A DNA stretch of 41,044 nucleotides. Origin: an uncultured Erysipelotrichaceae bacterium (GTDB lineage Bacteria > Bacillota_I > Bacilli_A > RF39 > UBA660). Numbering within the stretch: the first letter of the stretch is position 1; each line of letters starts with the position of its first letter. Of the stretch, positions 10,337-35,837 are shown one piece after another. The position numbers were made by a program, and so were the translations under genes. The notes beneath the pieces are model-generated. The model was not told the DNA's origin. It saw only the letters and a list, made by a program, of their open reading frames with translations, and did no database searches. The stretch is from assembly GCA_902783985.1 (NCBI GenBank), contig CACZTI010000050.1, positions 1 to 41,044 on the forward strand. Direction: 5' to 3'.

Positions 10337-10822
10337 ATGAAGAAGAAAATTATTGAAATTGTATTAGTTTTATTTATTATTTTTGAATTTATGGCAACAT
10401 ATTGTTTATTATCATTTGATAATTATAATGTTTTAAATACCAATAACAATTATTATTTAATCTATAATGGTAATGAATTATTTAAGAAAGGATCTCTTAT
10501 CAAATTTAAAAAAATTGATAATTGTGTAAATCTTCAAGAAGGAAAGGAAGTATATTATACTTTAAGTCCTGATGTTGTTTTAAAAGGTGAAGTTTCTAAA
10601 AGAGATGAAAATATGGATAATGATGCCATGATTATCTCAGGTAATTATATTAAATGTGATAGAATGTTAGGTAATGAATTTAAAGAATACAAAAATATTG
10701 GTAGTTTTATTAATTTTATAACTAATAAAAAAGTATATTTCTTTTTAATATTATTACCAACAATTGGTTTATTGGTATATGAAATATTCTTAATAAAAAA
10801 CAATATTAAGAAAGAAAACTAA
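10337..10822 (+). CDS. SipW-shaped membrane protein lacking the catalytic Ser/His (pseudo-signal-peptidase)
   Basis: Start moved to ATG 10337 (GGAAGG RBS). It has an N-terminal TM, a soluble domain of about 110 aa and a C-terminal TM (FFLILLPTIGLLVYEIF), as in SipW. NGNELFKKGSLIKFKK occupies the place of SGSMEP..GSLILVKE, and there is no THR(I/V) motif. Confidence 0.55.
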   Translation: MKKKIIEIVLVLFIIFEFMATYCLLSFDNYNVLNTNNNYYLIYNGNELFKKGSLIKFKKIDNCVNLQEGKEVYYTLSPDVVLKGEVSKRDENMDNDAMIISGNYIKCDRMLGNEFKEYKNIGSFINFITNKKVYFFLILLPTIGLLVYEIFLIKNNIKKEN

Positions 10823-10823
10823 T

Positions 10824-11753
10824 ATGAAAAAGAAATTTAAATTAAATAAAAAAATTGTATTTTTAGGAATAGCAATAGTTCTTTGTTTAATAATGGTTAT
10901 CTTTAATCCTGTAACTATTGCTAGATATGTTTATAATGCTATTAGAAATTATTATTTAGAAACCCAAGATTTTTATTTTAATTGTGATAAGATGTCTCTT
11001 AATAATTCTTTATATCAAATTGATAATTGGGATGGAGTAGAAGATTTTTCTGTTACTTTTAATATGAATAGTATTAAGAATAATTTGGTTGTTTCTAAAA
11101 GTGATATTTCTTATAATTTAAGTTATACATGTTCCAGTAATGTAGTATGTACAGCAAGTAAAAATAATGGTGTTATAGACGCTCAAAGTAATCGTGATTA
11201 TTTTATTATAAATATTCACCCTATTGTTTCATTACAAGAGGGTGATTCCGTATGGTTAAATGTTTCATCAACATCAATTAGTCCCTATGTTCAAACGATT
11301 AGTGGTAGAATTCAATTAAATGTTGGAATTCCTGGTTTAACATATGAAATAATGGATGAAGCGAATAGACCTTATTTAAATTTTTCTCTTACTAATACTT
11401 TTGATTTTTATAAAGTAATAAGGGCTTATGGAAATCATGCAGTAGGGGAAGAAATATCAAGTTCTGCTTATCGTAATTTACCTAGTTCAGAAAAAGAAAA
11501 TTATGCATCTGCTTTGATTACCTTATCATTTGATCCACATGTGGTACTCTTAGATTTGACAAGTGAGTTTTACCAAGATGCCGTATCTCATACTGAAATA
11601 GAAATAGATGGATATCAATATGTTAACAGTATAACTTTTAAAGTTGATCCAATATCCAGTGAAATGATAAGATTTTATAAAAAAAATGCTAGTATGAATT
11701 ATACATACCCATATGGCACTAATACACCAATAATTAGTTTTTCAGCTAGTTAA
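10824..11753 (+). CDS. Exported beta-rich protein of unknown function with a signal-anchor ending in TIARYVYN
   Basis: Basic N-terminus plus TM, and a beta-rich Ser/Asn/Thr composition. The gap to the upstream gene is 1 nt. Confidence 0.6.
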   Translation: MKKKFKLNKKIVFLGIAIVLCLIMVIFNPVTIARYVYNAIRNYYLETQDFYFNCDKMSLNNSLYQIDNWDGVEDFSVTFNMNSIKNNLVVSKSDISYNLSYTCSSNVVCTASKNNGVIDAQSNRDYFIINIHPIVSLQEGDSVWLNVSSTSISPYVQTISGRIQLNVGIPGLTYEIMDEANRPYLNFSLTNTFDFYKVIRAYGNHAVGEEISSSAYRNLPSSEKENYASALITLSFDPHVVLLDLTSEFYQDAVSHTEIEIDGYQYVNSITFKVDPISSEMIRFYKKNASMNYTYPYGTNTPIISFSAS

Positions 11754-11766
11754 GAAAGGAATAAAT

Positions 11767-12756
11767 ATGAGTCGTAATGTTGTAAAAGATTGTTTAGATT
11801 TTGATCGTAAAAATACTATAGAATACCTTAAATTAATATTTAATGGTAAGACTACCAAGGGATTATCTAATCAAATGGTCGATTATTACTTTGATTTAAG
11901 ATATTGTAATATAGAAGACAATAAGAATATCATAAATAATATTATTAATAATGTTAAAAAGAAAACATACGACTACGTAAAGAATGAGAATATTAAAATA
12001 GATAATATTCATGATGAAATAAATAATTCTTTATGGATATTAAAATATATTCTTTGTTTTGAAAAAGCTTTAAACGATAAAAAAATAATGAAACTACTAA
12101 ATGGTTTAGAAGAAAAAGTAAGTAAGAGAAATCAAAAACAAGATGTTTTAAAAGTAAAATTATTTCCAATGATAAAAAATAATTATGAAATAAAAGAGAA
12201 ATTTGTCAAAAAATGTTCTTGTAAAGATTTTGAACTTGATATAAAGAGTACTAATATTTTAAATGTTTTTTATACTACATTAAAAAGTAATGTTAAAATA
12301 CCAGAATTATTTAGTACTTTAGCTGCTAATAAAGTTTATAATAGTGGTACAGTTAATGAAGATAAACTATTGGTTTTATATACTTTAATTAGTATTAAAA
12401 TAATGGAAGATGTAAATAATTTTGATTATGATAAAAAATATGTTATATCATTTGATAGTAATTTACTTAATAAAAAGAATAAATGTAAACAATTGTTTAA
12501 AATATTTGATTTAGATTTTCTAAAAGACCGAATGATTATGGAAATATCATATGATGATTTTATAAATAATAAAGATTTAGTTTATGATCTTATTAGAGAA
12601 GGATATAAATTTGGGGTTATCATAAATGATGAATTTAGTGATAATATTCAGTTATTAGAAGTATTTGAATTTATTTTGTTAAATGGTAAATTAGAGAAGT
12701 TACCTAAATTAAAGAAAATAGATAATGTTATTATAAATGAATTGATTGGAGTATAG
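11767..12756 (+). CDS. Cytoplasmic protein of unknown function; possible degenerate EAL-like fold
   Basis: No TM segments. The C-terminal half shows a pattern like EAL beta strands (YVISFDSNLL ; IMEISYDDFI ; GYKFGVIINDEFSDN ; FEFILLNG) but lacks the catalytic residues. This is a weak call made by eye. Confidence 0.5.
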   Translation: MSRNVVKDCLDFDRKNTIEYLKLIFNGKTTKGLSNQMVDYYFDLRYCNIEDNKNIINNIINNVKKKTYDYVKNENIKIDNIHDEINNSLWILKYILCFEKALNDKKIMKLLNGLEEKVSKRNQKQDVLKVKLFPMIKNNYEIKEKFVKKCSCKDFELDIKSTNILNVFYTTLKSNVKIPELFSTLAANKVYNSGTVNEDKLLVLYTLISIKIMEDVNNFDYDKKYVISFDSNLLNKKNKCKQLFKIFDLDFLKDRMIMEISYDDFINNKDLVYDLIREGYKFGVIINDEFSDNIQLLEVFEFILLNGKLEKLPKLKKIDNVIINELIGV

Positions 12757-12758
12757 TT

Positions 12759-14297: not shown

Positions 14298-15461
14298 ATG
14301 CAGGAAGGAAATATCATTGATTTATATCATAGTACAGATAGTAACATTATTAATAAATTTTCTAATAATGTTGATTCTAAAGTTCATGTTAGTCTTGATA
14401 TTGATAGAGTAAACGCTGACTATGAATGGTTAGATATTATCGAAGATACGATAGTTTATATAGATAATATTTTGAGAAATCCTAATCGTTTTATAATTAA
14501 TGAAGAAGATGTTGTTAAAATAGAACTTGCAAGAAGAATAACTGTTGATAGTATTAAACATTTATCAAGAAACACTAACTTAATTCAAGATTATGATAAG
14601 AAAACAGGGGATGTTAAACCATCGAAAATATTAAATATCAATAAAGAAGAAAGTTTTAATACATCTGAAAACCGTTTTATCTATAGTTTAATTGAAAACA
14701 TGTCTTTATTCATAAGTCGTAAAAAACAAAAAATTGTCCTAGCGAATAAAAATAAATGTCAAAAAAAAGTTGAATATAATGCTTTTTCTAAAGTAGGAAG
14801 AGAAAATGTTAATATTAATTTTTCTATTGATAGTTTAATAGATACTAATAGTAATATTATGGAAGATGGATTAAATATTGAAGAAAGAATTAACAAAGTA
14901 GAAATGCGAATAAGAGATCTTAAAAGTTCTGAAGTATACAAAATGATTCATAAATTACATATTACTTTAGTAACATCTCCTATTAAAAAAACCAATGTTA
15001 TTTTAAAAAATGTTAACTTTCAATATGCAGTAAAGTTATGGAATTATTTACAAGAACATTTTGGTGAGGAAACAAATAAAGAGAATAAAGAAAAAAAAGA
15101 TTATGATGATAATGGTAAATTAAAACAATATTATGATGAGAGTTTTTTACTTGACTATTTAGTCCTTAATTCTATTGATGAAAATAATTTTAAAGATTTA
15201 TCTGTATCTAAAGAAGAATTAAAAGAAAGATTAGTTGGTAATATTGTTGAAAAAATAATTGATATTGATAATAAGATATCAGAGGAACAATTAAGTGAAA
15301 TTGTTGCTAAACAATTTGTTGTAATTAAAAATAAATATGTGGCTAGTGATAATAAGATTAAAGAAATATATCATAATGCTATCAATAAATATATGGATAA
15401 AATTATGGATTTAAAATTGGAGGATAATGATGAAGAATTTGAAAGAAAAGATAGAGAATAA
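14298..15461 (+). CDS. McrC/DUF2357-like partner protein (N-terminal region only recognisable), Lys/Glu-rich helical C-terminal half
   Basis: It lies immediately downstream of the McrB-like gene. The motif EESFNTSENRFIYSLIENM resembles the conserved (D)TxENRF element of McrC/DUF2357 proteins. I could not recognise a convincing PD-(D/E)xK nuclease motif by eye. The 3' end overlaps sipW by 35 nt. Confidence 0.5.
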   Translation: MQEGNIIDLYHSTDSNIINKFSNNVDSKVHVSLDIDRVNADYEWLDIIEDTIVYIDNILRNPNRFIINEEDVVKIELARRITVDSIKHLSRNTNLIQDYDKKTGDVKPSKILNINKEESFNTSENRFIYSLIENMSLFISRKKQKIVLANKNKCQKKVEYNAFSKVGRENVNINFSIDSLIDTNSNIMEDGLNIEERINKVEMRIRDLKSSEVYKMIHKLHITLVTSPIKKTNVILKNVNFQYAVKLWNYLQEHFGEETNKENKEKKDYDDNGKLKQYYDESFLLDYLVLNSIDENNFKDLSVSKEELKERLVGNIVEKIIDIDNKISEEQLSEIVAKQFVVIKNKYVASDNKIKEIYHNAINKYMDKIMDLKLEDNDEEFERKDRE

Positions 15462-16002
15462 TAAAGCTTTAAAAATATTGATTAAAGTATTTAAAACGAT
15501 AGCAATGGTAATAGTAATTTGTTTACTTTTAGTTATTGTTGTTCAAAAAGTATCATCTAATAATGTTAATTTAGGAGGATATGGTGTTTATACCGTAGTA
15601 ACTGGAAGTATGGATCCAACATTAAAAGTTAAAGATATGATTTTATCTAAAAAAGTAGATCCAGAAAGTTTAAATACTGGAGATATCGTTGTTTATAATG
15701 GAAATGAAGGTAGTTTTTCTGGTAAAATAGTAACTCATAGAATTATTAAAAAAGAAAAAAGAGATAATGTTTTGTATTTTACAACAAAGGGTGATGCTAA
15801 TCAAATAGAAGATAAAGAAATCACTGCTAGCCAAATAGTTGGTAAGTTTGTTACTAAATTAACAATATTAAGTCTTATAAGTCATATTATTAACAATACC
15901 GTAGGTTTCTTCTTTATTGTTTTTGTTCCCTTTATTATCTTTGTTTTTTGTGAAGTTATAAGTGTTAAGAATGAAATTGATAAAGAAAAAAGTGAGAGTT
16001 GA
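15427..16002 (+). CDS. sipW: Signal peptidase I, archaeal/ER type (SipW-like), copy 1
   Basis: GGAGG RBS. N-terminal TM, TGSMDPTL (catalytic Ser), VTHRII (catalytic His), TKGDAN and a C-terminal TM. This is the architecture and motif set of B. subtilis SipW. Confidence 0.85.
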   Translation: MMKNLKEKIENNKALKILIKVFKTIAMVIVICLLLVIVVQKVSSNNVNLGGYGVYTVVTGSMDPTLKVKDMILSKKVDPESLNTGDIVVYNGNEGSFSGKIVTHRIIKKEKRDNVLYFTTKGDANQIEDKEITASQIVGKFVTKLTILSLISHIINNTVGFFFIVFVPFIIFVFCEVISVKNEIDKEKSES

Positions 16003-16007
16003 TTTTT

Positions 16008-16613: not shown

Positions 16614-16615
16614 AA

Positions 16616-16641
16616 AAATAAGTACTTTTTAGTACTTATTT
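16616..16641. terminator. Bidirectional terminator between convergent TasA-like genes
   Basis: Stem aaataagtac / gtacttattt, T-rich loop, with A- and T-runs on either side. Confidence 0.7.
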
Positions 16642-17225
16642 TAATTTGCTTTTTGAATGAAATGTAAGTTAACATCCATTTTAGCAGTAGCATTATCACC
16701 AGTTGTATTAGTATCAGCTTCATTATTCATGGTGGAACCTTCACCATCATTCCATGTAACAAATACTCTAACTTGTTTTGTTTTATTAGCATCAGTCTTA
16801 TTTATAGTTCCTGTTATATTACTGTTATTATAATTTATTACCTCACCATTATCTAATGAATAACCAGTTATAACTAAATCAACAACTTGATTACTTGCAT
16901 TTTGATTAAGTGATATTTGATAATCAAATGTTACATCAGTTTCAGTTGCATCAATTATAATGTCAAAATAACCATTAGCTGTAGGGGCAATATAACCATC
17001 ACTTATATTATTATTACCACTAAATACTGGTTGAATAACAGTTTCAGCTGATAAATCATTTCTTACATCAAAATTATTTACAAGAATACGCCATCTTGCT
17101 ATTGACATATTTGATGTAGCATTATTGGAGGTTGAATATTTGGCATATGTTTCTTGCATTGTCAAAATACATAGTAAAATAGATACACAAAATATTAAAA
17201 AGATTATTTTTTTATTATATCTCAT
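16641..17225 (-). CDS. TasA/camelysin-like exported protein (194 aa), paralogue of 32611..33189
   Basis: AGGAGG RBS. The signal peptide ends in QETYAKYSTS. IARWRILVNN and YIAPTANGYFDIIIDATETDVTFDYQI match IAKWQIKVNN and LIAPGVGAYFDIDIDPNNTSVSIRYDI in the locus-2 protein. Confidence 0.7.
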   Translation of the reverse strand: MRYNKKIIFLIFCVSILLCILTMQETYAKYSTSNNATSNMSIARWRILVNNFDVRNDLSAETVIQPVFSGNNNISDGYIAPTANGYFDIIIDATETDVTFDYQISLNQNASNQVVDLVITGYSLDNGEVINYNNSNITGTINKTDANKTKQVRVFVTWNDGEGSTMNNEADTNTTGDNATAKMDVNLHFIQKAN

Positions 17226-17421: not shown

Positions 17422-18201
17422 ATGGCAAAAGAAGGATATGTTGTTTATACAGCGGATAAGATTAAAAATAGAAAGAAAAGAGCTAAAAGATATCGTATTA
17501 TTATTGTAATTTCGATTATTTTCTTAATGAGTTTATTTGTCGTTTTAAGTTTAGCTTATAATGGTGGAAGTTTTACAGTAACACTTGATCCTAACTTTAG
17601 ACTTGAATCAGGTCTTGCTATTTATACGGAAAAAGAAGTACATAAACATGTTCGTAAGTTATATGCGGATGAACTTAAATTTATGGATAATATATCAATT
17701 GATTGGCTACCTAAAAATATTAAAGATTTTTCCGGTGGTGGACATAATGGTGATAATTATATTGCTTATACTTTCTATATTGATAATCAAGGTGTTGAAA
17801 TACAAGATTATTGGTATAAAGTAGTTATTCAAGATGTTATTAAAAATGTTGATGAAGCGATTAGAATTATGATTGTTTTAAATGATACTGAAACAGTTTA
17901 TGCGAAAGCTAATCCCTTAACTGGAGAAGCTGAAAAAGGCACCAAAGCTTTTTATAAAAATGATGTTCCCATACTTGAAAATAGAGCTAAGTTAAAACCT
18001 GGTGAAATCGATAAAATGACCGTAGTTATTTGGCTTGAAGGAGATGATCCTGAATGTGTGGATAATCTTTTAGGTGGCGAAATAAAAATTGGTATGAATA
18101 TTACGGATGAGCATTTTGATGAAGAAACAAGAAACTATATTAACAATAATAAAAATAGTGTTAATGCCGATATTCCAACTATTCCGGATGAGAAAGAATA
18201 G
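17422..18201 (+). CDS. Membrane-anchored or exported protein of the W-[LI]-E-G-[QD]-D family (259 aa)
   Basis: A basic cytoplasmic N-terminus (RKKRAKRYR), then a TM ending in LSLAYNGGSFTV. The C-terminal motif MTVVIWLEGDDPECVDNLLGGEIKIGMNIT is shared with 18210.. and 34611.. Confidence 0.65.
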   Translation: MAKEGYVVYTADKIKNRKKRAKRYRIIIVISIIFLMSLFVVLSLAYNGGSFTVTLDPNFRLESGLAIYTEKEVHKHVRKLYADELKFMDNISIDWLPKNIKDFSGGGHNGDNYIAYTFYIDNQGVEIQDYWYKVVIQDVIKNVDEAIRIMIVLNDTETVYAKANPLTGEAEKGTKAFYKNDVPILENRAKLKPGEIDKMTVVIWLEGDDPECVDNLLGGEIKIGMNITDEHFDEETRNYINNNKNSVNADIPTIPDEKE

Positions 18202-18209: not shown

Positions 18210-19208
18210 ATGAAGGAAGAAAAGAAAAAAAGAAGAAAGTTTTTGTTTTTACTATTATGGTTTTTTATTGTCGGAATATTTCTAGCAACTTCAACATACG
18301 CTTGGTTTTCTACTAATAGAATTACGGATATTGAGTTTGTTGATGTTCATGTTGAAACAGATGGTGGTATTGAAATATCAACTGATGCTTTGGATTGGAA
18401 AAGTGTTTTAAGTGTTAATGATATAGTAGAAGCTTATAAAACATATGGAAATAGTACTAACCAAGTTCCAGCTAATGTCATGCCAATGTCAACTGCAGGA
18501 ATAACGGATAATAATGGATACTTATATATGTTTTATGGTAACTTAGAAAATGTTGCTTCTGGTGAATACATTTTATCTAGTAAAAGACAAGTAGAAACAA
18601 GATGTAGTGGGGAAGATTGTTCAGGAAGTTTTATTTCCTTTGATGTCTTCTTTCGTACTAGTGTTGATCGAAAATTATTTTTAAGTAGTGATTCATTTGT
18701 AACCTATTTAGGTGAAGAAAGTTTAGGTATTGAAAATTCCGCAAGAGTTGCTTTTGTATTGGAAGGTAATGTATCGCAAGATGCGAATATCAATGTCGCT
18801 CAAAATCTAAATGGTGGAAGAAATGATGATGTCTATATTTGGGAACCTAATTATGATGTTCATACAAGAACTGGTGTATCAAATGCCTTATCCACATTTA
18901 ATATCGTAACTACTGAAGAAAATGGAGAAATAATTCCTTATGATGGTGTCATTAATCCCATATTACTTTCTCAAAACATTGATATTAGAAATGCTAATAG
19001 TATAAATTATCCTAATTATTTTAAACCAGTAAATGTTAAAGTTTATACTAAAAGTAACAATGATACTAATCAAGAATTATTTGATATTAAAAGAGGTATT
19101 ACTAAAGTAAAAATATATATGTGGTTAGAAGGACAAGATGTTGATAGTGAAAACAATGCATCTTTTGGTGATATCAGATATAATTTGCAATTTACTTTAA
19201 ATCCATAA
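18210..19208 (+). CDS. Large TasA-like exported protein (332 aa), paralogue of 34611..35837
   Basis: The signal peptide ends in TSTYAWFSTNRITD. The C-terminus VKIYMWLEGQDVDSENNASFGDIRYNLQFTLNP resembles the TasA C-terminus (..NKYQGNSIKLQFSFEATQ). Confidence 0.7.
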   Translation: MKEEKKKRRKFLFLLLWFFIVGIFLATSTYAWFSTNRITDIEFVDVHVETDGGIEISTDALDWKSVLSVNDIVEAYKTYGNSTNQVPANVMPMSTAGITDNNGYLYMFYGNLENVASGEYILSSKRQVETRCSGEDCSGSFISFDVFFRTSVDRKLFLSSDSFVTYLGEESLGIENSARVAFVLEGNVSQDANINVAQNLNGGRNDDVYIWEPNYDVHTRTGVSNALSTFNIVTTEENGEIIPYDGVINPILLSQNIDIRNANSINYPNYFKPVNVKVYTKSNNDTNQELFDIKRGITKVKIYMWLEGQDVDSENNASFGDIRYNLQFTLNP

Positions 19209-28200: not shown

Positions 28201-28644
28201 ATTGAATCATCTGATGAATGTGATGTTCCATTTAAAATAATGGAAAAGAATTATGGATTAGATATTGATATTGATGATAAATATTTAATTATTGATCATG
28301 AAACAAGTAATAATTTAGATGGTAATAAAGATTTTAATTTCAATATTTTATATTCATCTACCCTAGATAATCCAAATCTTCGTATTGCCCTATTTAGAAG
28401 AACTTATAATAATATATATGATTTATCATATAATCTTGTAGATGTTAAAGATTATCTTGATGGAACACTAAATACTACAAGTGATGATAAAGTATATAAA
28501 TTCTTTACTAATCCAGGATCTAATGTAAATAATAGTTATACTTTAAAAGATAATTTAAAAACCGGAACATATAAGTTAGTAATATATCTATATGATGGTG
28601 ATGTAAATGTTGGTAATATCTATCAATACTTTGTTATCAAATAA
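19228..28644 (+). CDS. Giant (3138 aa) exported protein with ricin-type beta-trefoil-like blocks and a long parallel beta-helix repeat region; putative adhesin
   Basis: AGGAGG RBS. The N-terminal signal-anchor ends in NLFRTFSED. It has two blocks of W.I....G.Y.I.N....(R)YL.....W.YD modules (about 20060-21280 and 22660-23520) and two beta-helix blocks rich in (I/V)(Y/F)GG(G/S)N (about 22080-22640 and 23540-26070). The C-terminal third is beta-sandwich-like. There is no LPXTG. Confidence 0.85.
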   Translation: MKKIVKNKSLFNRLIVIFFVIAIILFLSINLFRTFSEDVSDTSSHITGDTVYVNDLVSDYNYYLGMNYVGDIDSNSVSYSDSNLSSVTIVYHGYDSSVNNCDDTLCGYVSLTERQNKFIYYKYYPVVNNEMTIELIDNPFSDRPTNKAFGGWTSTDGVITRNNNTNVQTIKVVKSGNNQVVNIYANWINAHVVYLKGSLGDDNFDGSTEDDAVASWGRAFSLLESNSTNPDDRERNIIVLTGDIAMSPNYSQTVTHTYDITVNYNDKTNFDDTPHIIEYKNGNTRYALTDNNGVSYTTLSLNTEPLDNTKWIIREENGSYTIQNYDTNRYLSYSVNGSNVTLNMTNTSTLWKYDNNLRKFYVPIDLSYYEYTYNDVNNITSGEEYLITSGSENNTLNSNLANISFNNRNFNNNALWTFTNENGGYSIKNGNNYLSSVDGGNNGAALYFSSSLATWRYDDTNHAFYRQTLINYVTYSYNHANYINSGSNYYITNGDNNNLIALSVNGNNLTYFDMTDNEPTNTSSWLLNNYNGGYTIRNVSNNRYLYCSNNGTLSTNTNSRTWMYDANNHRLYYQRNYNNRYYLRYNNGTWSTTTNANQATELYFTTRVTNSSYQNTNVYLSFDNNRWGLVDTLGDNTTITLKTVESNYVNNTVNYYVRYNNGFEISDIDSNNRLNFATYTIDREIRTTNTGNIGTNNYNTNNNNLAVTITSLYNHIDYRNNASIDLTDDVNNGYDFVSAYNDLQMEYLSIKANGFNAISNDTTTTNYSGTYAALEGNYHNVRIGRGMNTTSWTNDSASIFSFAYGGSDSTSLGSSNNHNNDYRFVIETGRYSSVMGVRIANDGNYSNYNTVDYYGKMTFVLGNDYDRVSNIHNRLQVYYRAGSSNNYGIVGKTNSNNPAYLINVKSGNIGYDYFNNNPSDDNRAYSGLYVGGLTVNATNSTTDISPRVLVMEGGYIANIVGGLRLYENYQNTVPTKIYVKGGTISNIVGGAGVSTTYGNRYISVTGGSIEYSVSGGSNGVFATDSTGQQSGKLQGNSYVHIGGNASIGTNNSGELYGVSYGSVLGAGNGNSDVPNSGQVIKTNVFISGDAKIYGSVYGGGNYGNVTDDVHLDISGGTIYGSVYGGANKNGIGSVTIQEGMGETVSYVNHENITSGNGYLIVKENGSTMNALSLNNNSITNSVLGTTTSAPLRSFWTITSQDNGYTIKNVSNNMYLTHETGLNNPTLKLDTNPAVWQYDTSNKSFYKQASYFNDYTVSYNFSTSMITNEEILLTNSNSNTANSMAITNNNLSNITLNSTSIPLDNLWIIEENNGEYAIKNVNTGLYLNMESSGWFNYNLTLGNNPTYWQSDGRNFYYGAFFRTYYLTYNNGWTTTTTASSGTNFYFGKYNINYNEIEDTFYLGFNNNWVLTRTNTSVNSLTFKTQNVSTNFVQTATNRLNGDVTINMTGGEIKKTLYGGSCEKGNVAGDVIINILGGTINYDDNNHGSLFGGGYGEETSIAGNINVSIEDNNKVMIKGDSYGGSALGTVIGNIQFDIDDTSSTPTITIDGDTYCGSMGNKLDSTLGNIMGNCSLNIKEGDFTKNFYGGNNSGGGAYGNITVTTGGYNTDAKIGNVYGGGNEADSLSNNVTVYVKDKSNITNVFGGGNLATVSNTNVYLQGGTATNTFGGSNKSGADVTNVYLQNGNFTNIYGGSNELGEVLATNITLTGGRATTVYGGNNIGGTTTNSNVLLNGSNVDTIYGGGNEAQTTTTIVNINNGTASNVYGGGNKALTDTTNVNLNGGTITNTYGGGNEAGIITKTNVKLAGSTTTNIFGGSNTSGVVPISNVLVNSGTSSNIYGGNNVGGSTTESFVTMNGGTINTIYGGGLLASTGKTNVTINNSLTNVYGGGESANVTGSSNIQMNSGTISNIYGGSNTSGVVNNSNITIDGGTITTIYGGNNAGGSTTVSNLNINDGTINTIYGGGSRANHGTSNINFNTVSNNSVSAIYGGGMEASCTTSNVNLIKGKANYVYGGSNTSGVVTTANVNITGGTYTDIYGGNNAGGTTTNTFIDYQNATVSNIYGGGNNADVSGNTSVKLANGTISNNIFGGGNNAKVLGNTNVLINGTTINGSAYAGGNGASATVVKDTYILVEGNTNILNHVFGGGNAAYTGIVTNNNSKGSVNIIGGRINGNVYGGANTSVLYGDTTVNIGYNAVLNNNANLDSSTLSKGDIYIGGTVFGGGEANASGSEDYDYSFISVTVGIIINIDGSNHDHFDISGSIFGSGNASSTTGYSRIYISNYGSLDDVKENISIQRADLVVLNNTNIELSGATDRTNEYSSVLFSVSRIDELDLVNNSTIYFQNGANLLKKFRSLKDNNTLASVVIDEDNGTVVKNVNNRIYMLEDKILNIATNQNITSYGEVDGMTFLGMYKKERTGEIVVAMYDTSYNYGDHADDNDIYYFSGGTYVLGLHEDNHNIEVDGFYSNFASTEEGEENTLEVKYIVPTPEDSSYYMWIIGTSVTSYEVDLVASKYSTLGTYELPLIDYTTANTYFSVVGFQYENLNSEVSLVSPNSIPRIASNSNDADNKLGLSIRPGTEGWITLGSTDFLTESENNISGTTTYYTENSSLAPSLLFYLYHSKNLATDGNLGYVTIKLLAITPINDLEKETTRIDIVVNLSRAIYQGDFYEAAMTPGRQYEFFSSSPTRITSKSSLSAYYALYVNSDTNIYRNGYHHALVSDKLLPVNTKITMIDFASGTSPEYYYYITNAQDNIDIINKYNLYLTYSYDLSKFIKMGSSSTNNTYDEETLKNIYYNSENKMAVEEFIFIVDFCDAEIASNYLETSLLMEIRTSTEQTIYSVLGTQHDSMKYDLYYNSDGIIHVDAELNNNVIHIGNDTTLRVTTSFEQKKDNSNNNIIDTTYYDNKLGIKLTIYDENNNQVNGVDLMGVSFVYNGITHYPRSDGTVRINLAEKVANVYSAIVIDTSDGNLSGGNYTLKVESFYSPDGIYYGIESSDECDVPFKIMEKNYGLDIDIDDKYLIIDHETSNNLDGNKDFNFNILYSSTLDNPNLRIALFRRTYNNIYDLSYNLVDVKDYLDGTLNTTSDDKVYKFFTNPGSNVNNSYTLKDNLKTGTYKLVIYLYDGDVNVGNIYQYFVIK
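23540..26070 (+). repeat. More than 35 tandem repeats of about 24-25 aa (72-75 nt) of the form x(I/V)(Y/F)GG(G/S)Nxxxxxx(T/S)N(V/I)x(L/I)xGG, with a higher-order period of about 300 nt
   Basis: The 23-mer ggtggaagtaatacaagtggtgt recurs at 24667, 24961 and 25264 (spacings 294 and 303 nt). The rung types GGSNTSG / GGNN(A/V)GG / GGG.. / GGG.. cycle in the same order. Confidence 0.9.
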
Positions 28645-28677: not shown

Positions 28678-28707
28678 ATATTCTTATAATAGAAGGAGAA
28701 AAGAATT

Positions 28708-30042
28708 ATGGAAGAAAAGAAAAAGAAATTTTTAATAAAAAGTTATAAACAAATGTTTATGGTAATAGGAATATTTACCTTAATTTTATTAGTTGGTGGA
28801 ACAACATATGCATTTTTTAATTATACAAGAACCGGTTCTGCCAATACTTTAAGAACAGGAAGAATTTATTTTAGTACAGAACAAACAAATCAAAATACGA
28901 TTACATTAAATAATATTTTTCCAATGACTAAAGAACAAGCACTTGCTGATACAAGTACAAATGGCACATTAGTAGTAACCTTTACTGGAGATACCACATA
29001 TACTGAAGGAATAGAATATTTATTAACAATAGATTCAGTAACAAGAACAGCCAATGTACCAATAAGTTTAATCATGGATGTTAATGTAGAATCAAGAACA
29101 GCAGGTGAAACACCAACAGTAACCACATTAACTGAAAATGTTGATTATTATTCAGCAAGAGAAGCTAAAACAACATCAATGTATAAAGCAGAAGGAAATG
29201 ATACCACAATAAATAGTACAACACATAAAGTAATAACTGATATCGAAACAGGAAAATATTTACTTGCAGGATACATTAAAAGTGGAACAGATGTTGTAAA
29301 TGGAACAGTAACCATAAAAGCATTTATAGATGCTGATAATCTTTTAATTACTGATACCCCAAATGATCAATCTAAAGCTCCAACTGGATATACAGATGGA
29401 ACAGTAACAACAGGAAAAACTGTCATATCAACAACTGATTGGAATTCTCTACAATCAACGGGAGTAAGTTTTAAAGTAAAAGGAGAAGCAAATCCAGGAA
29501 TCTGGGTACCAGAACCAAGTCAAGGAACAATTGATTCATGTCCGGGATGTAAATTTATTTACTCAACAACTCAAATGTGGACAACATGGAATACTGAAAG
29601 TGAAACACCAACACAAATAACAAGTGGATATAGTGAAAATTATAATGATATCGTAACAAGTAGTGGAAAGAATTACTTTTTAGGAGTGGTAACAAATAAT
29701 AATAATGAAGTAACAAATGACTATGCATGTGGAATAAAAGATGGAACACCATTTTGTATCGAAGGAACAAATGATGGATCAAAATATACAGCAAATCAAG
29801 GACTAATAAATGGAGCAAGTCTATGGAATAACACATGTAATATACAAACTGGTAAAGGTAGTGTTGAAGTAACAATATGTGGACCATGGGATGACACCTC
29901 TGTTTCTGCTGCTGCTGGCTCTGATGGCATTGCGGATGCTGGCGTTGGTGATGACGACTACTGTGAAGTGGACATATATGGCCGTTTCATGTGCTATGGG
30001 TCTGTTCATGAGGAGCCTGCGCCTCTTGGACCACAGTCGTAG
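28708..30042 (+). CDS. Exported protein (444 aa): the same N-terminal TasA-like module as the LRR protein, fused to a Cys-rich C-terminal domain
   Basis: AGGAG RBS. GGTTYAFFNYTRTGSANTL matches GGVTYAFFNYTRTGETNLL in 3150... Further shared blocks are (L/I)NN(I/L)FP, TGDTTYTEGIEY / TGNTDYEEGLEY, Y(L/F)L(A/T)GYI and (V/I)SFK(V/I)K.EA. The last 170 aa contain 10 Cys. The last 54 codons (about 162 nt) are G+C-rich. Confidence 0.8.
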   Translation: MEEKKKKFLIKSYKQMFMVIGIFTLILLVGGTTYAFFNYTRTGSANTLRTGRIYFSTEQTNQNTITLNNIFPMTKEQALADTSTNGTLVVTFTGDTTYTEGIEYLLTIDSVTRTANVPISLIMDVNVESRTAGETPTVTTLTENVDYYSAREAKTTSMYKAEGNDTTINSTTHKVITDIETGKYLLAGYIKSGTDVVNGTVTIKAFIDADNLLITDTPNDQSKAPTGYTDGTVTTGKTVISTTDWNSLQSTGVSFKVKGEANPGIWVPEPSQGTIDSCPGCKFIYSTTQMWTTWNTESETPTQITSGYSENYNDIVTSSGKNYFLGVVTNNNNEVTNDYACGIKDGTPFCIEGTNDGSKYTANQGLINGASLWNNTCNIQTGKGSVEVTICGPWDDTSVSAAAGSDGIADAGVGDDDYCEVDIYGRFMCYGSVHEEPAPLGPQS

Positions 30043-30205
30043 TCCCGCCAGCTGATCCAATCTCACAATCTTGAATCAAGCATTTTCGTTAAGAAAATGT
30101 GCATGAGGACAAAATCTTTTAGATTTTGGTCCGAATAAAGTGCTGAACGAAAGACGAGGCACAAGGGGTCTCTTGGCACTATTATATAAATAGTGCCAAG
30201 AGATA
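29881..30205. other. G+C-rich compositional island spanning the 3' end of the 444-aa gene and about 160 nt downstream
   Basis: My hand counts are 34/60, 30/60 and 35/60 G+C for 29881-30060, against about 25-30% in the flanks. The downstream part carries at least three perfect or near-perfect hairpins. Confidence 0.7.
30169..30203 (+). terminator. 15-bp perfect stem-loop (possible terminator of the 444-aa gene, or part of a structured RNA)
   Basis: tctcttggcactatt-atata-aatagtgccaagaga. The downstream sequence is A/T-rich but is not a clean T-run. Confidence 0.4.
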
Positions 30206-30363
30206 ATAATTATGTTATAAAAAACTAGAGTTCTTTATAAAGGGATATTCTAATTTATGTGGGCTGCTTTTATCTTGAATAAATTAATAAAATACATGTA
30301 AAATATGTATTTTTATTTTGTTTTATGATATAATTTTTTTATAAATACTTGGAAGGTGAAGAT

Positions 30364-30468
30364 ATGAATGATATTTCAAATAGTGATTTATTAGATATAT
30401 ATAAATTAGTAAGTGACTATATAAAAGAATTAACAAAAGATAAAGAAAGTTTTCATGATGGTGAATAG
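30364..30468 (+). CDS. Small ORF (34 aa) whose stop abuts or overlaps the start region of the 519-aa gene
   Basis: GGAAGGTGA RBS 4 nt before ATG 30364. MNDISNSDLLDIYKLVSDYIKELTKDKESFHDGE. Its TAG (30466-30468) lies 1 nt before ATG 30470 of the next ORF. Confidence 0.35.
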   Translation: MNDISNSDLLDIYKLVSDYIKELTKDKESFHDGE

Positions 30469-32014
30469 TATGTTAGATGATGTTAAAAATAAAATAGAAA
30501 ATGATAAAGAAATATTAAGTGTATTACCTAAAAACAATTTGAAAAATAGAAAAAATTATTTAGAAAAAGTAACATCATTAATTAATGAATATCAAGGTAT
30601 TAATGATAATGTATTAACTGAAATAGAAAAAAGATATCATAGTTTATGTGATATAAAAGATGATAATATTAGTAATAATACAACTGAATTATTAAATGAT
30701 TTTAATTATCTAAATAGTTTAACTTCACCAATGGAAATACTTAATTTAGATAAAATGTTAGATATAATTAATTCATATGAAAATGAAAATCTTGATATTA
30801 TTAATGAAAATATTTTAAATATTATTAAAGTGTTTAATGATGTTGGTATTGTTTTAAATAAAGAATCATTTGATTTTAATGTTTACGCTAGTGAATATAT
30901 TGATTTTTTACTTAAAGAAAAAGATAATAATAAAATACATGAATATTTTGAAAAATTATATTGGAAATGTCCTAATATTTTAAAATATCTTGTGGTTAAT
31001 TTCTATGATTTATATTTTAAAAATAATAAGAAATTTATAAGTTATATTGAAAATCAAAAATCAAATAAATTTTCTAAATATGAAGATAAAAAGAATAGTG
31101 GATTTAGTATATTTAGAAAAAAGAGTTCTAATTATTTAGATAATGTTAATAAAGAATATCAAAAAAGAATTATTAATTATGATAATTTAATTAGTAAATC
31201 AAGAAAAAGATATTTAGATATGTTTTTAAATAATGAATTAGATATTAAAGATTATGATAAAGTTAAAATAGATAAAATGATTAATGATTATACAGAAAAT
31301 TCGATTGTTAATGATAAAAAAAGTTTATTTATTAATTTAAGAAATTCTCTTAGAGAATATCAAATGATTAGTAAATACCATTATATAATTGATGAATGTC
31401 ATGAATTATATAATAATAAAAATGATTATAAGAGTGTTTTAAAAAATAAACTTAAAGATATAGATAAAATATCTAATGAAATAAAAAAGAATAATGTTAA
31501 AGCTAAAAAGATAATGGATAATGATAATAATGAATTTCTTAATAAAAATGATTTACTTTTAAATGATTTATTAAATTTATATAGTGAATATGATTTAGAT
31601 ATTATTAAAGATCGAATATATAATTATATTGATGATAATAGTAAGTTATCTCTTTATTTAGAACTTGGTATTAGTAGTTATTTGTTTTTAAAAAGGGTAT
31701 CTTCTAAATATCAAATTGAAATGGATCTAAATGATATTTTAAAAGATATTAATACATTTATTCATAGTCCATATGTTACATTAATAAATAATGAAGGTTA
31801 TAGTGATTTAGAAAAATTAAATTCTATTGTTGTAGATAAATATAAATTATTAGGATTTAATATTAATTTAGATTATTTAGAAGAAGGTAATATTGATAAT
31901 TTTATTAAAGTTATTGATAACATTGTTAATTATCATTATATGAATGATATTAATATTAATTTTGATGATATAAGTTTTATTTTAAAAGCAAGGGAGATTT
32001 TAGAAGGGAAATAG
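30455..32014 (+). CDS. Cytoplasmic Asn/Lys/Asp-rich helical protein of unknown function (519 aa; the start could be 30455, 30458 or 30470)
   Basis: Long ORF with no TM segments and no recognisable motif. It heads SipW locus 2. Confidence 0.6.
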   Translation: MMVNSMLDDVKNKIENDKEILSVLPKNNLKNRKNYLEKVTSLINEYQGINDNVLTEIEKRYHSLCDIKDDNISNNTTELLNDFNYLNSLTSPMEILNLDKMLDIINSYENENLDIINENILNIIKVFNDVGIVLNKESFDFNVYASEYIDFLLKEKDNNKIHEYFEKLYWKCPNILKYLVVNFYDLYFKNNKKFISYIENQKSNKFSKYEDKKNSGFSIFRKKSSNYLDNVNKEYQKRIINYDNLISKSRKRYLDMFLNNELDIKDYDKVKIDKMINDYTENSIVNDKKSLFINLRNSLREYQMISKYHYIIDECHELYNNKNDYKSVLKNKLKDIDKISNEIKKNNVKAKKIMDNDNNEFLNKNDLLLNDLLNLYSEYDLDIIKDRIYNYIDDNSKLSLYLELGISSYLFLKRVSSKYQIEMDLNDILKDINTFIHSPYVTLINNEGYSDLEKLNSIVVDKYKLLGFNINLDYLEEGNIDNFIKVIDNIVNYHYMNDININFDDISFILKAREILEGK

Positions 32015-32610: not shown

Positions 32611-33189
32611 ATGCGAAAAATACTACTTTTAGTCGTATTATTATTTCTTTCTTTAACTATTATGGAAATCAGTAATACTTTTGGTTTATTTGAAACTAAT
32701 AATGTTATAACAGTAGATAATAATATTGCTAAATGGCAAATTAAAGTTAATAATAGTTTGATTAAAGATCCTGTTCATTTTACAGTTAATAATTATAATA
32801 TTGATAGTGATTCCAATGTTAAAGAAGGATTAATAGCTCCTGGAGTTGGAGCTTATTTTGATATTGATATTGATCCTAATAATACATCAGTATCCATTAG
32901 ATATGATATTACTTTTGATTTAACAGGATTAGAAAATGATAAGATAAAAATAGTTAATATTGAAGAATTAGGTGGCAATACTTTAGTTAATAATAATGAT
33001 ACTTATACGGGTATTATCCCTATTAATAATAGTTCTATTCATCATATTAGAGTACATATTGAATGGGAAAATGATGAAGAAAATAATGAAATTGATTCAA
33101 AGTTTGGGGTTACAGGTGAAAAAGAAATTAATATCGCTACGAATATTAAATTTAGTCAATATTTAGGGGAAACAATTACAAATAATTAA
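32611..33189 (+). CDS. TasA/camelysin-like exported protein (192 aa)
   Basis: The signal peptide ends in SNTFGLFETNN. IAKWQIKVNN, LIAPGVGAYFDIDIDPNN and IRVHIEWENDEEN. It is a paralogue of 16641..17225. Confidence 0.7.
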   Translation: MRKILLLVVLLFLSLTIMEISNTFGLFETNNVITVDNNIAKWQIKVNNSLIKDPVHFTVNNYNIDSDSNVKEGLIAPGVGAYFDIDIDPNNTSVSIRYDITFDLTGLENDKIKIVNIEELGGNTLVNNNDTYTGIIPINNSSIHHIRVHIEWENDEENNEIDSKFGVTGEKEINIATNIKFSQYLGETITNN

Positions 33190-33210
33190 AGAATAAAAAG
33201 AGGTGATGAT

Positions 33211-33951
33211 ATGTTAAATAAATCTCATAAGATTGTTAATATTATAGTTAATATTTTAATAACTATCGTCATCTTGATTATTCTTTTTTGTTTATATAGT
33301 TTTATAAGTTTAAAAATAATGCAAAAAAAATATGTTAATATCTTTGGATATACATATTTTCAAGTAGCAACTGGTAGTATGAAAGACTATATAAATGAAG
33401 GTGATGTTGTTATTGTAAAAATAAATAGTGATTATAATGAAGGTGATGTTGTAACTTATATATCTGGTAAGGATTTTGTAACTCACCGTGTTATTGAAAA
33501 GAATGATGATTATATCATAACAAAAGGTGATAATAATAATACTAATGATAATCCCATTGATAAAAGTTTAGTTTTAGGTAAAGTTACTAAGATTATTCCA
33601 AATGTTAAAGCGATTAAAGAAGTTTTATTATCTCCTAAAGTTATTATTTTAATCTTTGTATCGCTATTTTGTTTAAGTTTATTATTTTCGTATAATGGAA
33701 ATAAAGAAAAGGTTATTAAAGAGGATAAAGAAAAAGATAAAATAGAAATAAAAGAAAAAGAAGAAAAGAAAAAAGATAAAGATACTGAAATAGTTAAAGT
33801 TAAAGAAGTACCTTCTAAAAAGAAAAAAGTTTTAGATGCTACTCAAGTTATAGATATAACTGAAATAAAAAAAGAAGTTAAAAAATCTAAAAAAGTATTA
33901 GATGCAACGCAAATAATTGATATAAATGAGATAAAAAATAAGGTGAAATGA
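33211..33951 (+). CDS. sipW: Signal peptidase I, archaeal/ER type (SipW-like), copy 2, with a Lys/Glu-rich repeat-containing C-terminal tail
   Basis: GAGGTGA RBS. N-terminal TM, ATGSMKDY (Ser), VTHRVI (His), TKGDNNN and a C-terminal TM. A tail of about 80 aa follows, containing two copies of KKVLDATQ(V/I)IDI(T/N)EIK. Confidence 0.85.
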   Translation: MLNKSHKIVNIIVNILITIVILIILFCLYSFISLKIMQKKYVNIFGYTYFQVATGSMKDYINEGDVVIVKINSDYNEGDVVTYISGKDFVTHRVIEKNDDYIITKGDNNNTNDNPIDKSLVLGKVTKIIPNVKAIKEVLLSPKVIILIFVSLFCLSLLFSYNGNKEKVIKEDKEKDKIEIKEKEEKKKDKDTEIVKVKEVPSKKKKVLDATQVIDITEIKKEVKKSKKVLDATQIIDINEIKNKVK

Positions 33952-34532
33952 TGTCAATATTTAATAAAAAAAAGATTATTGAATTTAATAAAATAACAAT
34001 ATTACTTGTAGTTTTAATACTTTTATTATGTTTGATACCATTAACTTTTTCTCGTTTTGAAACTGAAAAAGAAGGGGATATCATTATTCCTCATGCAATA
34101 TATTTACTTGAAGATACGGTAATTTCTGAAACAGTCAGTCTACCAGAAATCATACCTAGTAATAATCAATATTTATATTATTTTACTATTAGTAATTTCA
34201 ATGAAGAAAGAAGAACTGAGACTAATCTTAAATATGATTTATCGATTAGGACAACAACTAATATTCCTATAACCTATGATTTATTTAAAGGAACTACAGT
34301 AAATAATAATACGAGTATTGTTACAAGTAATCAAGTTATAACGGATGATGATGGGACTTTTTTTAGGATAATAGAAACAAATACAGAGTATTTTAATTAT
34401 AGTGAAAATCAAACAAATAGTTATGTTTTATTAATAACTTTTCCAGCTGGTTATAATGATTCTGACTATCAAGATTTATTTGAAATGATAGAGATAAATA
34501 TAAAATCTCATCAAGTTTTATCAACTGATTAA
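33948..34532 (+). CDS. Exported protein (194 aa) with a signal-anchor ending in LTFSRFETEKE
   Basis: ATGA overlap with sipW-2. It has a TM followed by a beta-rich domain of about 150 aa. Its size and position correspond to the small TasA-like gene after sipW-1. Confidence 0.6.
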   Translation: MMSIFNKKKIIEFNKITILLVVLILLLCLIPLTFSRFETEKEGDIIIPHAIYLLEDTVISETVSLPEIIPSNNQYLYYFTISNFNEERRTETNLKYDLSIRTTTNIPITYDLFKGTTVNNNTSIVTSNQVITDDDGTFFRIIETNTEYFNYSENQTNSYVLLITFPAGYNDSDYQDLFEMIEINIKSHQVLSTD

Positions 34533-34610
34533 ATATTAAGGAATTTTTAAAAAAAGTATTGAATTCGACAAAAAAATATGATAACATTATATAGTATAAG
34601 GGAGAGATGT

Positions 34611-35837
34611 ATGAAAGAAGAGTTATTAGTAAAGAAAAGTGATAACAGAAAGAAACAAGAAAAGGGTTTTTGGTATGTTTTAATGCACCGCAATAAGAAG
34701 GGAAGAAAAAGCTTAGTATTACTTTTATTTCTATTGTTGACAGTAGTATTATTAAGTACATCAGTTTATGCATGGTTTACAGCAAACTATGTTGTATCAG
34801 TTACCGATTTGGATGTTACTGTTGCTAGTGGATCAGGTATTCAAATTTCAACTGATGCTATAAATTGGAAGTCTTTAGTTACATCTTCTGAATTACTTGC
34901 TGCAAGTTCAACATATGCTGATGCTGTTAATCAAGTACCTACAAGAGTAAATTCTGGAACTATTCTTAACCCAGTATCAACTGTTAATACTGTAGCTGCA
35001 GTTAACGGATATAAAGTTGGTGGAGAAAACACTAAGAGTTTACAAGGATTAAAGATGTATCTTGGTAGTGTTACTAATAATAGTTTAGGTAATTATATTT
35101 TAACTGCTACAGAAGAAAATGATCGTAATGGAGCAAGTGGTAACTATTTAGCATTTGATGTATTTATTAAATCAGATTTTAGTGAAAATACAACTCTTTA
35201 TTTAACAAAGAATACTAGTGTTAAAGGATATACTGTAAATAGTGGTATTGATACCGATATTGAATATGCTTCTCGTATTGCTATTATTGATGAAGGTAAT
35301 ACTGCTTCAAGTTCAACAACATCAACGATGCAAGCTTTAAATGATGGTACATCAGCAATCTTTATTGAACCAAATTATGATGTTCATACTGCTACTGGAG
35401 TAAACCATGCAAGCAATGTTTATGGTATTACAACATATGCAACAACTGCTGCTTATAATACAGCAAATGATTCTAGTGTAACATATCAACCTGCACTTGC
35501 ATATTCAGGTGTTAAAGCTCCTATTGCTGCAAATCAAGCAGATTATTCAACCGGTGCAAATACTGGTGTTAAATGGGGCGATGCTACTGCTACAAATTAT
35601 GGATCACTATTTGGTGATGTAACAATCAATAAGTTAATTGCATCTGATAATGATACTGCTGAAAGTGGAACTCATACTGAATTAATGACTTTAAAACCTG
35701 GTGTTACAAAACTTCGTATTTATATGTGGATTGAAGGACAAGATATTGACTGTGAAAATAAAGCATCTGGTGGAACATTAATTTTTAACTTAGGATTTGA
35801 AGTTAATGAACCAGGTACTACTCCAGTTACACCATAG
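34611..35837 (+). CDS. Large TasA-like exported protein (408 aa); candidate major structural subunit
   Basis: I place the start at ATG 34611 (GGGAGAG RBS). The signal peptide ends in TSVYAWFTANYVVS. The C-terminus LRIYMWIEGQDIDCENKASGGTLIFNLGFEVNEP places it in the same family as 18210... Its Ala/Thr/Ser/Gly/Val-rich composition is unlike its neighbours. It has its own candidate promoter (TTGAAT at 34559, TGaTAACAT at 34579) and a strong terminator. Confidence 0.75.
   Translation: MKEELLVKKSDNRKKQEKGFWYVLMHRNKKGRKSLVLLLFLLLTVVLLSTSVYAWFTANYVVSVTDLDVTVASGSGIQISTDAINWKSLVTSSELLAASSTYADAVNQVPTRVNSGTILNPVSTVNTVAAVNGYKVGGENTKSLQGLKMYLGSVTNNSLGNYILTATEENDRNGASGNYLAFDVFIKSDFSENTTLYLTKNTSVKGYTVNSGIDTDIEYASRIAIIDEGNTASSSTTSTMQALNDGTSAIFIEPNYDVHTATGVNHASNVYGITTYATTAAYNTANDSSVTYQPALAYSGVKAPIAANQADYSTGANTGVKWGDATATNYGSLFGDVTINKLIASDNDTAESGTHTELMTLKPGVTKLRIYMWIEGQDIDCENKASGGTLIFNLGFEVNEPGTTPVTP

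Follow-up and report, generated by a model that had tools for sequence, protein, structure and literature searches.

A block of about 25.5 kb, lying at 10.3-35.8 kb of a 41,044-nucleotide stretch of DNA from an uncultured Erysipelotrichaceae bacterium (contig CACZTI010000050.1; the whole stretch is called the window below), carries 17-18 genes that, in our reading, form a single functional system of uncultured, small-genome gut Bacilli. We propose that this is a multi-subunit, SipW-dependent, probably donor-strand complemented surface fibre or adhesin system, and we give this reading, jointly with the whole assembly mechanism set out below, a probability of roughly 55%. The block is syntenic, or permuted yet linked, across dozens of uncultured Bacilli/"Tenericutes" genomes. 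The original prediction had seen two SipW-centred loci forming one neighbourhood. The large conserved neighbourhood stands, whereas its division into two separate loci does not, because the gene order is conserved and the modules remain adjacent even when they are permuted. That first reading had also left out a GTPase, its McrC-like partner, two cytoplasmic proteins and two pseudo-peptidases, which are as conserved as the exported substrates or more so and alter what kind of system this is.

Gene content and conservation of the block

Genes are named by their start coordinate in the window, (-) marks the minus strand, and an arrow (↓) marks the predicted cut. The genes of the block, followed by one accessory gene outside it, are:

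10295..10822 (+): pseudo-SipW A, dead; weak SipW match (E 0.003) and BLAST matches to 15427 and 32062
10824..11753 (+): exported 309-residue protein, T-I-A↓R-Y (T-Y-G↓R-Y in orthologues); orthologues in 48 loci
11767..12756 (+): conserved cytoplasmic protein of no family; syntenic in 48 loci; no hydrophobic helix
12759..14279 (+): membrane-tethered McrB-family AAA+ GTPase; match to McrB in the PDB (6ut6)
14298..15461 (+): McrC-like partner with the DUF2357 N-terminal domain only; PF09823, 44.5 bits (cut-off 23.3)
15427..16002 (+): SipW-type (archaeal/ER-type) signal peptidase I, predicted active, copy A; TIGR02228, 89.3 bits
15999..16613 (+): exported small protein, N-T-Y-A↓W-F; same superfamily as 16641 and 32611
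16641..17225 (-): exported small protein, E-T-Y-A↓K-Y; jelly roll in the AlphaFold2 model
17422..18201 (+): probable uncleaved type II membrane protein; helix at residues 26-44 after a basic stretch; in 80 of 80 loci
18210..19208 (+): exported 332-residue protein, T-S-T-Y-A↓W-F-S-T-N-R; beta-rich in the AlphaFold2 model (pLDDT 86)
19228..28644 (+): giant exported 3,138-residue putative adhesin with the same signal type and no C-terminal anchor; lectin-like, with YGG(G/S)N beta-helix-like repeats
28708..30042 (+): strain-variable accessory exported protein, signal GGTTYA↓FFNYTRTG; sub-threshold PF12389 N-domain
30455..32014 (+): conserved cytoplasmic 519-residue protein of no family; no hydrophobic helix
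32062..32607 (+): pseudo-SipW C, dead; TIGR02228, 30.2 bits, below cut-off
32611..33189 (+): exported small jelly-roll protein, N-T-F-G↓L-F-E-T; paralogue of 16641 (BLAST 2e-20, hhalign 100%)
33211..33951 (+): SipW-type signal peptidase I, predicted active, copy C, with a Lys/Glu-rich C-terminal tail; TIGR02228, 74.7 bits
33948..34532 (+): exported small protein, L-T-F-S↓R-F-E-T; comes next after SipW C in 12 or more metagenome loci
34578..35837 (+): exported paralogue of 18210, S-V-Y-A↓W-F; 34% identity, BLAST 5.8e-62
3120..6098 (+): accessory leucine-rich repeat (LRR, BspA-type) adhesin, signal GGVTYA↓FFNYTRTG; LRR_5, 7.7e-82; outside 10337-35837

Relatives of the cluster number 528 among species representatives. 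When the window proteins were compared by tblastn with 80 genome loci, each gene from 10295 to 32611 was found in 36-80 of them, and its order was unchanged in most of the 20 loci that were laid out. The McrB-like module lies immediately upstream in 40 of the 52 loci that have at least 9 kb of upstream DNA. For the second half of the block, scanning metagenomes with the second pseudo-peptidase as anchor recovered the order 30455, pseudo-SipW, 32611, SipW, 33948 and 18210-like gene in at least 12 loci. In three loci (L081, L091 and L104) the modules are permuted and still adjacent. The genes are tightly packed, 14298 and 15427 overlapping by 35 nt and 15427 and 15999 by 4 nt, and 28708 is the only strain-variable gene. 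The cluster takes up about 2% of a genome of about 1.25 Mb, in a lineage known from metagenomes alone.

The predicted presence of two catalytically plausible SipW genes was borne out. Both 15427 and 33211 pass TIGR02228 (cut-off 51.85 bits) and have the Ser (GSM), His (THR) and Asp (GDxN) boxes, which are kept in 55 orthologues of 15427; judged by these residues, both enzymes appear catalytically competent. Against NF046067, the Bacillus SipW equivalog (cut-off 190 bits), they reach just 83.1 and 52.5 bits, and they are thus SipW-type enzymes and not orthologues of B. subtilis SipW. The tail of 33211 (residues ~165-246), which is not found in 15427, contains KKVLDATQ(V/I)IDI(T/N)EIK twice. Proteins 10295 and 32062 retain the SipW topology with N- and C-terminal helices. 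An alignment of both proteins and their orthologues contained none of the catalytic Ser, His and Asp boxes; being below the cut-off and without all three residues, they are pseudo-peptidases. The true start of the 10295 gene is likely the ATG at 10337.

The most conserved gene of the block is that of the GTPase 12759 (median identity 76% across species, mean column conservation 0.83). Its product aligns with E. coli McrB (6ut6) over 226 residues (143-368, E 3.3e-4) and matches the PADLOC model PDC-M26A at 1.1e-32. It has Walker A (GISGTGKTS) and Walker B (ILDEMN) motifs and an INNDD, aligned to the NTAD of McrB, that can be read as NxD or NxxD. No DNA-binding domain was matched by hidden Markov models (HMMs); the N-terminus is instead a membrane anchor, whose strong helix spans residues 58-76. 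Around residues 88-124 a heptad-like stretch was seen by eye, for which a crude, insensitive coil score was negative and no DivIC/FtsB Pfam match was obtained. The DUF2357 gene adjoins the GTPase gene in every locus that carries the latter. Its product 14298 shows conserved sequence blocks in the orthologue alignment, and HMM searches gave no nuclease domain and no match at all in its C-terminal half. Of the two cytoplasmic proteins, 11767 has no Pfam, NCBIfam or PADLOC match; 30455, likewise without a family, is flanked in every case by the giant gene and pseudo-SipW C.

Such an association has been reported independently. In one paragraph, Bell et al. (2024) point to McrB-like GTPases that carry a fused FtsB-like domain, with a membrane segment and a coiled coil, and that make up a large clade; they name CoCoPALM, in which McrBC is linked to signal peptidases and pilus assembly, deferring it to a later paper (PMC11090510). 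The same source gives DUF2357 as the part of McrC that inserts into the McrB ring and stimulates it (PMC11090510). That paragraph holds no substrate list, mechanism or example, and TasA-like signals, pseudo-peptidases and adhesins do not appear in it; CoCoPALM is not mentioned in two supplementary text files of the paper, and our literature search found no later paper on it. The cluster shares with this description the McrB-family GTPase domain, the adjacent DUF2357 McrC homologue and neighbours of the signal-peptidase family, two active and two inactive by their residues. The N-terminal membrane helix and heptad-like stretch of 12759 may correspond to the FtsB-like domain, and its INNDD, if read as NxD, to the NxD clade of the McrB GTPase tree in which CoCoPALM is placed. 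By the three shared features the cluster fits the CoCoPALM class, which has been named and not described, and for which it would serve as a concrete, dissected example.

Signal motif, families and modelled folds of the exported proteins

Eleven proteins had originally been listed as carrying a SipW-type signal motif. All eleven have a single N-terminal hydrophobic segment and none has a C-terminal one, and, as had been claimed, neither an LPXTG-like motif nor another C-terminal anchor occurs in any of them. Membership was judged by a basic N-terminus, one helix, small residues at -1 and -3, flanking aromatics and an adjoining SipW gene. Inspection and a regular expression found this layout, in the general form T-[Y/F/W]-[A/G/S]↓x-[F/Y] after the basic N-terminus and helix, in ten of the eleven, and it is conserved in their orthologues. 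Seven proteins (3120, 15999, 16641(-), 18210, 28708, 32611 and 33948) have the strict pattern [ST][YFW][AGS].[FY] at the end of the helix. Another three match in relaxed form or through their orthologues: 34578 with VYAWF, 10824 with TIARY (T-Y-G-R-Y in orthologues) and 19228 with TFSED (T-Y-G-D-F or T-F-S-D-Y in orthologues). Elsewhere in the 12,939 residues of the 32 open reading frames checked, the strict pattern turns up just three times, a rarity that rules out a chance motif. The exception is 17422, for which the claim did not hold: its family motif (V/I)YKGGxFT(V/I)TLD is contrary to the -3/-1 rule, and the protein is therefore probably not cleaved.

Across orthologues of as many as 80 species, no stretch of the N-terminal region is better conserved than the motif, which also ranks with the most conserved parts of each whole protein. 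The 18210 family has an invariant W32 and F33, and the 16641 family a nearly invariant T-Y-A-K-Y. The suggested likeness to the cleavage region of TasA holds as well. The TasA fibre structure 8AUR starts at A28, which places the TasA cut at GGGTWA↓AFND, and TasA and the cluster proteins have in common Thr at -3, aromatic residues at -2 and +2 and a small residue at -1. In TasA, residues 28-38 just after the cut form the donor strand (F29, I32, F39; bioRxiv 10.1101/2022.03.14.484220). By analogy in sequence, cleavage of the cluster proteins is predicted at the motif, which could be used to find such substrates in other genomes. The motif reads F-[G/S]↓x-F-E-T near the second peptidase (32611, 33948) and Y-A↓x-[F/Y] near the first (15999, 16641, 18210), so the two enzymes may have different substrate sets.

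Several of the small exported proteins belong together. Besides the paralogy of 32611 and 16641, hhalign joined 15999 to 16641 (93.7% over 171 columns) and to 32611 (93%) along their full length. The same method gave 62% for 10824 with the 16641 family and 57% with the 15999 family, and 10824 possibly holds a small jelly-roll domain. A38, W39, P81, G82, M83 and Q202 are invariant in the 15999 family. An exhaustive profile search with 16641 returned 2,625 representatives at E<=1e-3 from a library clustered at 50% identity, of which the best 150 matches were inspected, so that the distant end of the family, with a possible link to TasA, lies outside this view; Pfam scans of its long or fused members yielded nothing informative. 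This module also seems to reach the giant protein, whose N-terminal ~200 residues align with the 16641 family (hhalign 82% over 162 columns). The remainder of 19228 gave weak RicinB and Fascin matches, and the giant gene is present in 60 of the 61 loci with enough downstream DNA.

The larger exported proteins form a second family. Protein 18210, a candidate major subunit, has 456 homologues, none of which contains a Pfam domain. Its paralogue 34578 is the conserved last gene of the second module, and its gene likely starts at 34611. In one locus (L025, 10001-12577) two tandem 18210-like genes stand upstream of the giant gene; the copy number of the large subunit therefore varies between lineages. 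The C-terminus of 17422 aligns with the 18210 family (hhalign 71%), the motif W-x-E-G-x-D...F being common to 17422, 18210 and 34578, and 17422 is a candidate base or anchor. The accessory proteins 3120 and 28708 have paralogous N-domains (32% identity over ~260 residues, E 8e-31) from a family of 108 proteins, in which the domain is elsewhere fused to LRR_5, DUF285, Big_2 or Flg_new. In locus L064, a protein with a 28708-type N-domain comes after the 18210 orthologue. No substrate family has a Pfam or NCBIfam model, and sequence and profile searches of the PDB with 18210, 16641, 28708, 15999 and 14298 gave no matches.

AlphaFold2 models were made of 18210 and of mature 16641. In the 18210 model (pLDDT 86), residues 2-27 are helical, residues 27-42 are disordered, with values below 50, and the body is beta-rich; mature 16641 (pLDDT 79) folds as a jelly roll behind 12 disordered N-terminal residues. 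In both models, 12-16 disordered residues after the predicted cut thus precede a confident beta-domain. Foldseek found no PDB match to 18210 at E<0.01; the Sulfolobus thread subunit had the highest match probability (0.51), and TasA was outside the top 50. For 16641, TasA (5of2) ranked 12th (E 8.5e-3, probability 0.94) with a template modelling (TM) score of 0.38, the highest query TM in the top 50, and FimG reached probabilities of 0.84-0.91, all of these matches being weak. The structure predictions that had been suggested as a check thus returned a jelly roll for 16641, with a weak match to TasA. Taken as models, these folds are compatible with donor-strand subunits and do not amount to proof.

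Proposed assembly mechanism, alternatives and known systems

In the mechanism that we propose, Sec would insert at least nine proteins into the membrane by their N-terminal signal-anchor helix, and the two active SipW-type peptidases would cut them after T-aromatic-small. The freed N-terminus (x-aromatic...) would then act as a donor strand that completes the sheet of a neighbouring subunit, as residues 28-38 do in TasA. The small jelly-roll subunits 15999, 16641, 32611, 33948 and perhaps 10824 would link into the fibre as initiators, adapters or terminators, a type of role proposed for TapA (bioRxiv 10.1101/2022.03.14.484220) and likewise for TafC, TafE and TafF (PMC11821415). The larger 18210 and 34578 would be the main fibre subunits, and the giant 19228 and the accessory 28708 and 3120 would join through their pilin-like N-domains, either in the fibre or at its tip. 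Uncleaved 17422 would form the membrane base. The dead SipW paralogues would hold signal regions without cutting them and serve as assembly platforms, which would make dead signal peptidases possible assembly factors. From the cytoplasmic face, the GTPase, its McrC-like partner and the two cytoplasmic proteins would control or energise assembly. The system probably serves attachment to hosts, food particles or other cells, as the main means of doing so in these bacteria.

Several results weigh against this reading. The core substrates stay below the cut-offs of PF12389, TIGR04088, TIGR04089 and TIGR04090, which a TasA control passes. Profiles of 18210 and 16641 found nothing when aligned by hhalign with a single TasA sequence. 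All Foldseek matches have E >= 3e-3 and TM < 0.4, and generic jelly rolls score like TasA. The GTPase module is not directly upstream in 12 of the 52 loci, where it may sit elsewhere in the genome. Finally, we know of no fibre system that uses a McrB-like GTPase, so that any role for the GTPase is guesswork. We separate from the main proposal a bolder version that we consider unlikely, in which a membrane ring of McrB-type GTPase and a nuclease-less McrC-like plug are coupled mechanically or allosterically to the fibre, with the dead peptidases as an usher-like platform. If true, this would be a new nucleotide-driven machine for surface filaments or giant adhesins, apart from the type IV, chaperone-usher, sortase and TasA pathways, and one that is central to a major uncultured lineage of the gut.

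The alternative that survives best is SipW-type processing without polymerisation, whose chances we put well short of even. The products would then form a non-filamentous coat or adhesion complex that holds the giant adhesin, with the mature N-termini as recognition sites only. Such a coat would sit well with the lack of significant TasA or pilin fold matches and with families that match no model, and the conservation at P1'-P6' could reflect substrate recognition alone. However, the many small jelly-roll paralogues, the module fused to adhesins and the disordered segment after the cut resemble donor-strand systems, and a released coat protein without an anchor would need some means of staying on the cell.

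We regard as improbable that the block is an enlarged operon of true TasA/camelysin proteins too diverged for HMMs. The N-domain of 28708 and 3120 comes closest, with sub-threshold PF12389 matches in 22 of 46 members (best 1.4e-4) and an hhalign match to TasA at E 2.7e-4; to this may be added a weak match of the 16641 N-terminus to the TapA model and the top TM score of TasA among the fold matches of 16641. Yet the similarity, the hhalign match included, takes in the signal peptide and goes no further than one or two strands beyond it. In the family test for TasA/camelysin (PF12389; NCBIfam NF046066) no window protein reached the cut-off, and the core families 18210, 16641 and 15999 show no PF12389 match in 29-50 members each (0 of 45 for the 16641 family, 0 of 29 for the 15999 family). 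With TIGR04088 (a 34-position model, cut-off 19 bits), the TasA control scored 38 bits and 28708 12.7 bits, and the other eight N-termini gave no match. TasA was absent from the 18210 top 50, and the GTPase pair and pseudo-peptidases have no counterpart in tasA operons. The suggested search with these TasA models therefore turned out negative for every core substrate. Of the TasA-like fibre with dedicated adhesin subunits that had been predicted, the adhesins with their common N-terminal modules remain, and neither models nor profiles place the core substrates in TasA/Peptidase_M73. The strand motifs said to be shared with TasA can be seen by eye (YPGM...N.G in 15999, W-x-[DE]-G...F-x-Q at several C-termini), but no model recognises them.

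Defence genes are typically patchy and variable. That the block is merely a surface-protein locus with an unrelated, inserted McrBC-type anti-phage module is highly improbable. In favour of such an insertion, 12759 is matched best by McrB and by a PADLOC model for candidate defence genes, and DUF2357 is the N-terminal domain of McrC. Against it, a membrane helix stands where McrB has its DNA-binding domain, and no nuclease could be detected in the partner protein. No other part of the block is as conserved as this pair, which overlaps the SipW gene and moves with pseudo-SipW, 10824, 11767, SipW and 15999 when modules rearrange, and the same association was reported independently in the paragraph on CoCoPALM (PMC11090510).

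Placed among known systems, the cluster that we read as a fibre system shares several features with tapA-sipW-tasA of B. subtilis and sipW-tasA-calY of B. cereus. In all of these an archaeal/ER-type signal peptidase I gene stands beside its substrates, the cut has the layout T-aromatic-small↓x-aromatic, and sortase signals are absent; beta-sandwich or jelly-roll subunits, with a donor strand after the cut, are features of TasA that the cluster may share. Whereas the TasA system has three genes, the cluster has 17-18 conserved ones around dedicated peptidases, two active and two dead, and so does go beyond that paradigm, as had been stated. It adds the giant 3,138-residue substrate, the pair of McrB-like GTPase and McrC-like protein, and two further cytoplasmic proteins, and its substrates, unlike TasA, fail the PF12389 and TIGR04088 models.

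The tafi filaments of Haloarcula hispanica are multi-subunit and need a dedicated signal peptidase I, TafD (PMC11821415). As in our cluster, the peptidase gene of tafi and taf-like systems is clustered with several substrates, which in tafi are beta-sandwich proteins of 150-300 residues, modelled as tip/initiator, adapter, core and anchor and linked by donor-strand exchange (PMC11821415). The tafi peptidase gene has as its partner that of another membrane protein, DUF5305 (TafG), for which the dead peptidase would be the counterpart here; neither DUF5305 nor DUF1102, the type of the tafi subunits, was matched in Pfam by any cluster protein. In contrast to the cluster, tafi is archaeal, uses Tat export in haloarchaea and has 5-7 genes with no GTPase and no giant adhesin; Sec-type taf-like clusters are known in Thermococcales and Archaeoglobus (PMC11821415). 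With McrBC type IV restriction systems, the cluster shares the AAA+ GTPase core (Walker A and B, Asn/Asp motif) and the DUF2357 partner; it differs in having a membrane helix for the DNA-reading domain and no nuclease domain detected by HMMs, and its GTPase pair sits in what would be an export and assembly operon and is conserved like a housekeeping gene. The system would thus combine the logic of TasA and tafi, a dedicated signal peptidase with donor-strand subunits, with a McrBC-derived CoCoPALM module, and it offers a testable link between the donor-strand fibre idea and a GTPase recruited from restriction systems.

Donor-strand logic, minor subunits and tip adhesins may also be common to the cluster and to chaperone-usher and archaeal thread or bundling pili. 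However, the cluster has no periplasmic chaperone or usher and no sequence relationship to these pili, and the likeness is purely one of analogy. A type IV pilus or pseudopilus is excluded: the motif follows the helix instead of preceding it, and none of prepilin peptidase, PilB and PilC was detected in the cluster. Sortase pili are excluded by the lack of an LPXTG motif and of a C-terminal helix in the eleven proteins.

Source lineage and genomic surroundings

The window has a G+C content of 19-32%. Its proteins are 97-99% identical to those of locus L001, a contig of a metagenome-assembled genome titled "uncultured Clostridia bacterium". Other relatives are titled uncultured Bacilli, Tenericutes, Mycoplasmatota and Erysipelotrichaceae, or Clostridium sp. 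CAG:451, CAG:628, CAG:914 and CAG:609, and one is a closed 1.26-Mb chromosome. We take these relatives to be members of the RF39-type orders of GTDB. A cell wall has been predicted for most species of the RF39-type order (PMC10868615).

On its 5' side, the block at 10337-35837 is bounded by a divergent 214-residue gene and then rpsI and rplM. The flanking features are:

9503-10147 (-): 214-residue helical protein without family, divergent from the first cluster gene
35850..35869 (+): terminator-like hairpin and T run, which closes the cluster
35900-36077 (+): T-box leader (Rfam, 98.4 bits, above the gathering score), just 3' of the cluster
36112-36813: deoC-like gene, downstream of the T-box leader
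36813-38042: tyrS, downstream of the deoC-like gene

The flanking ribosomal-protein, deoC and tyrS genes, a composition like that of the flanks and vertical conservation exclude a prophage or mobile island. In the Rfam search the sole match was the T-box leader, which lies outside the cluster, and a promoter scan of this AT-rich DNA gave no more sites than shuffled sequence. Within the block, the 28708 gene and its 3' tail (28647-30310) form an insertion of ~1.7 kb, which L001 (20431-20600) lacks although it is 99% identical. Part of this tail (30040-30210) is G+C-rich for this genome, has no Rfam match and ends in a perfect hairpin, TCTCTTGGCACTAT...ATAGTGCCAAGAGA. Two adjoining proteins of 364 and 150 residues, with no Pfam match, are encoded 3' of tyrS (38049-39598, (+)). 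Directly 3' of the LRR adhesin 3120, a 538-residue polytopic membrane protein without a Pfam match overlaps a family-2 glycosyltransferase (PF00535, 4.8e-27) at 6205-8443 (+), and the two may be a glycosylation pair for surface proteins.

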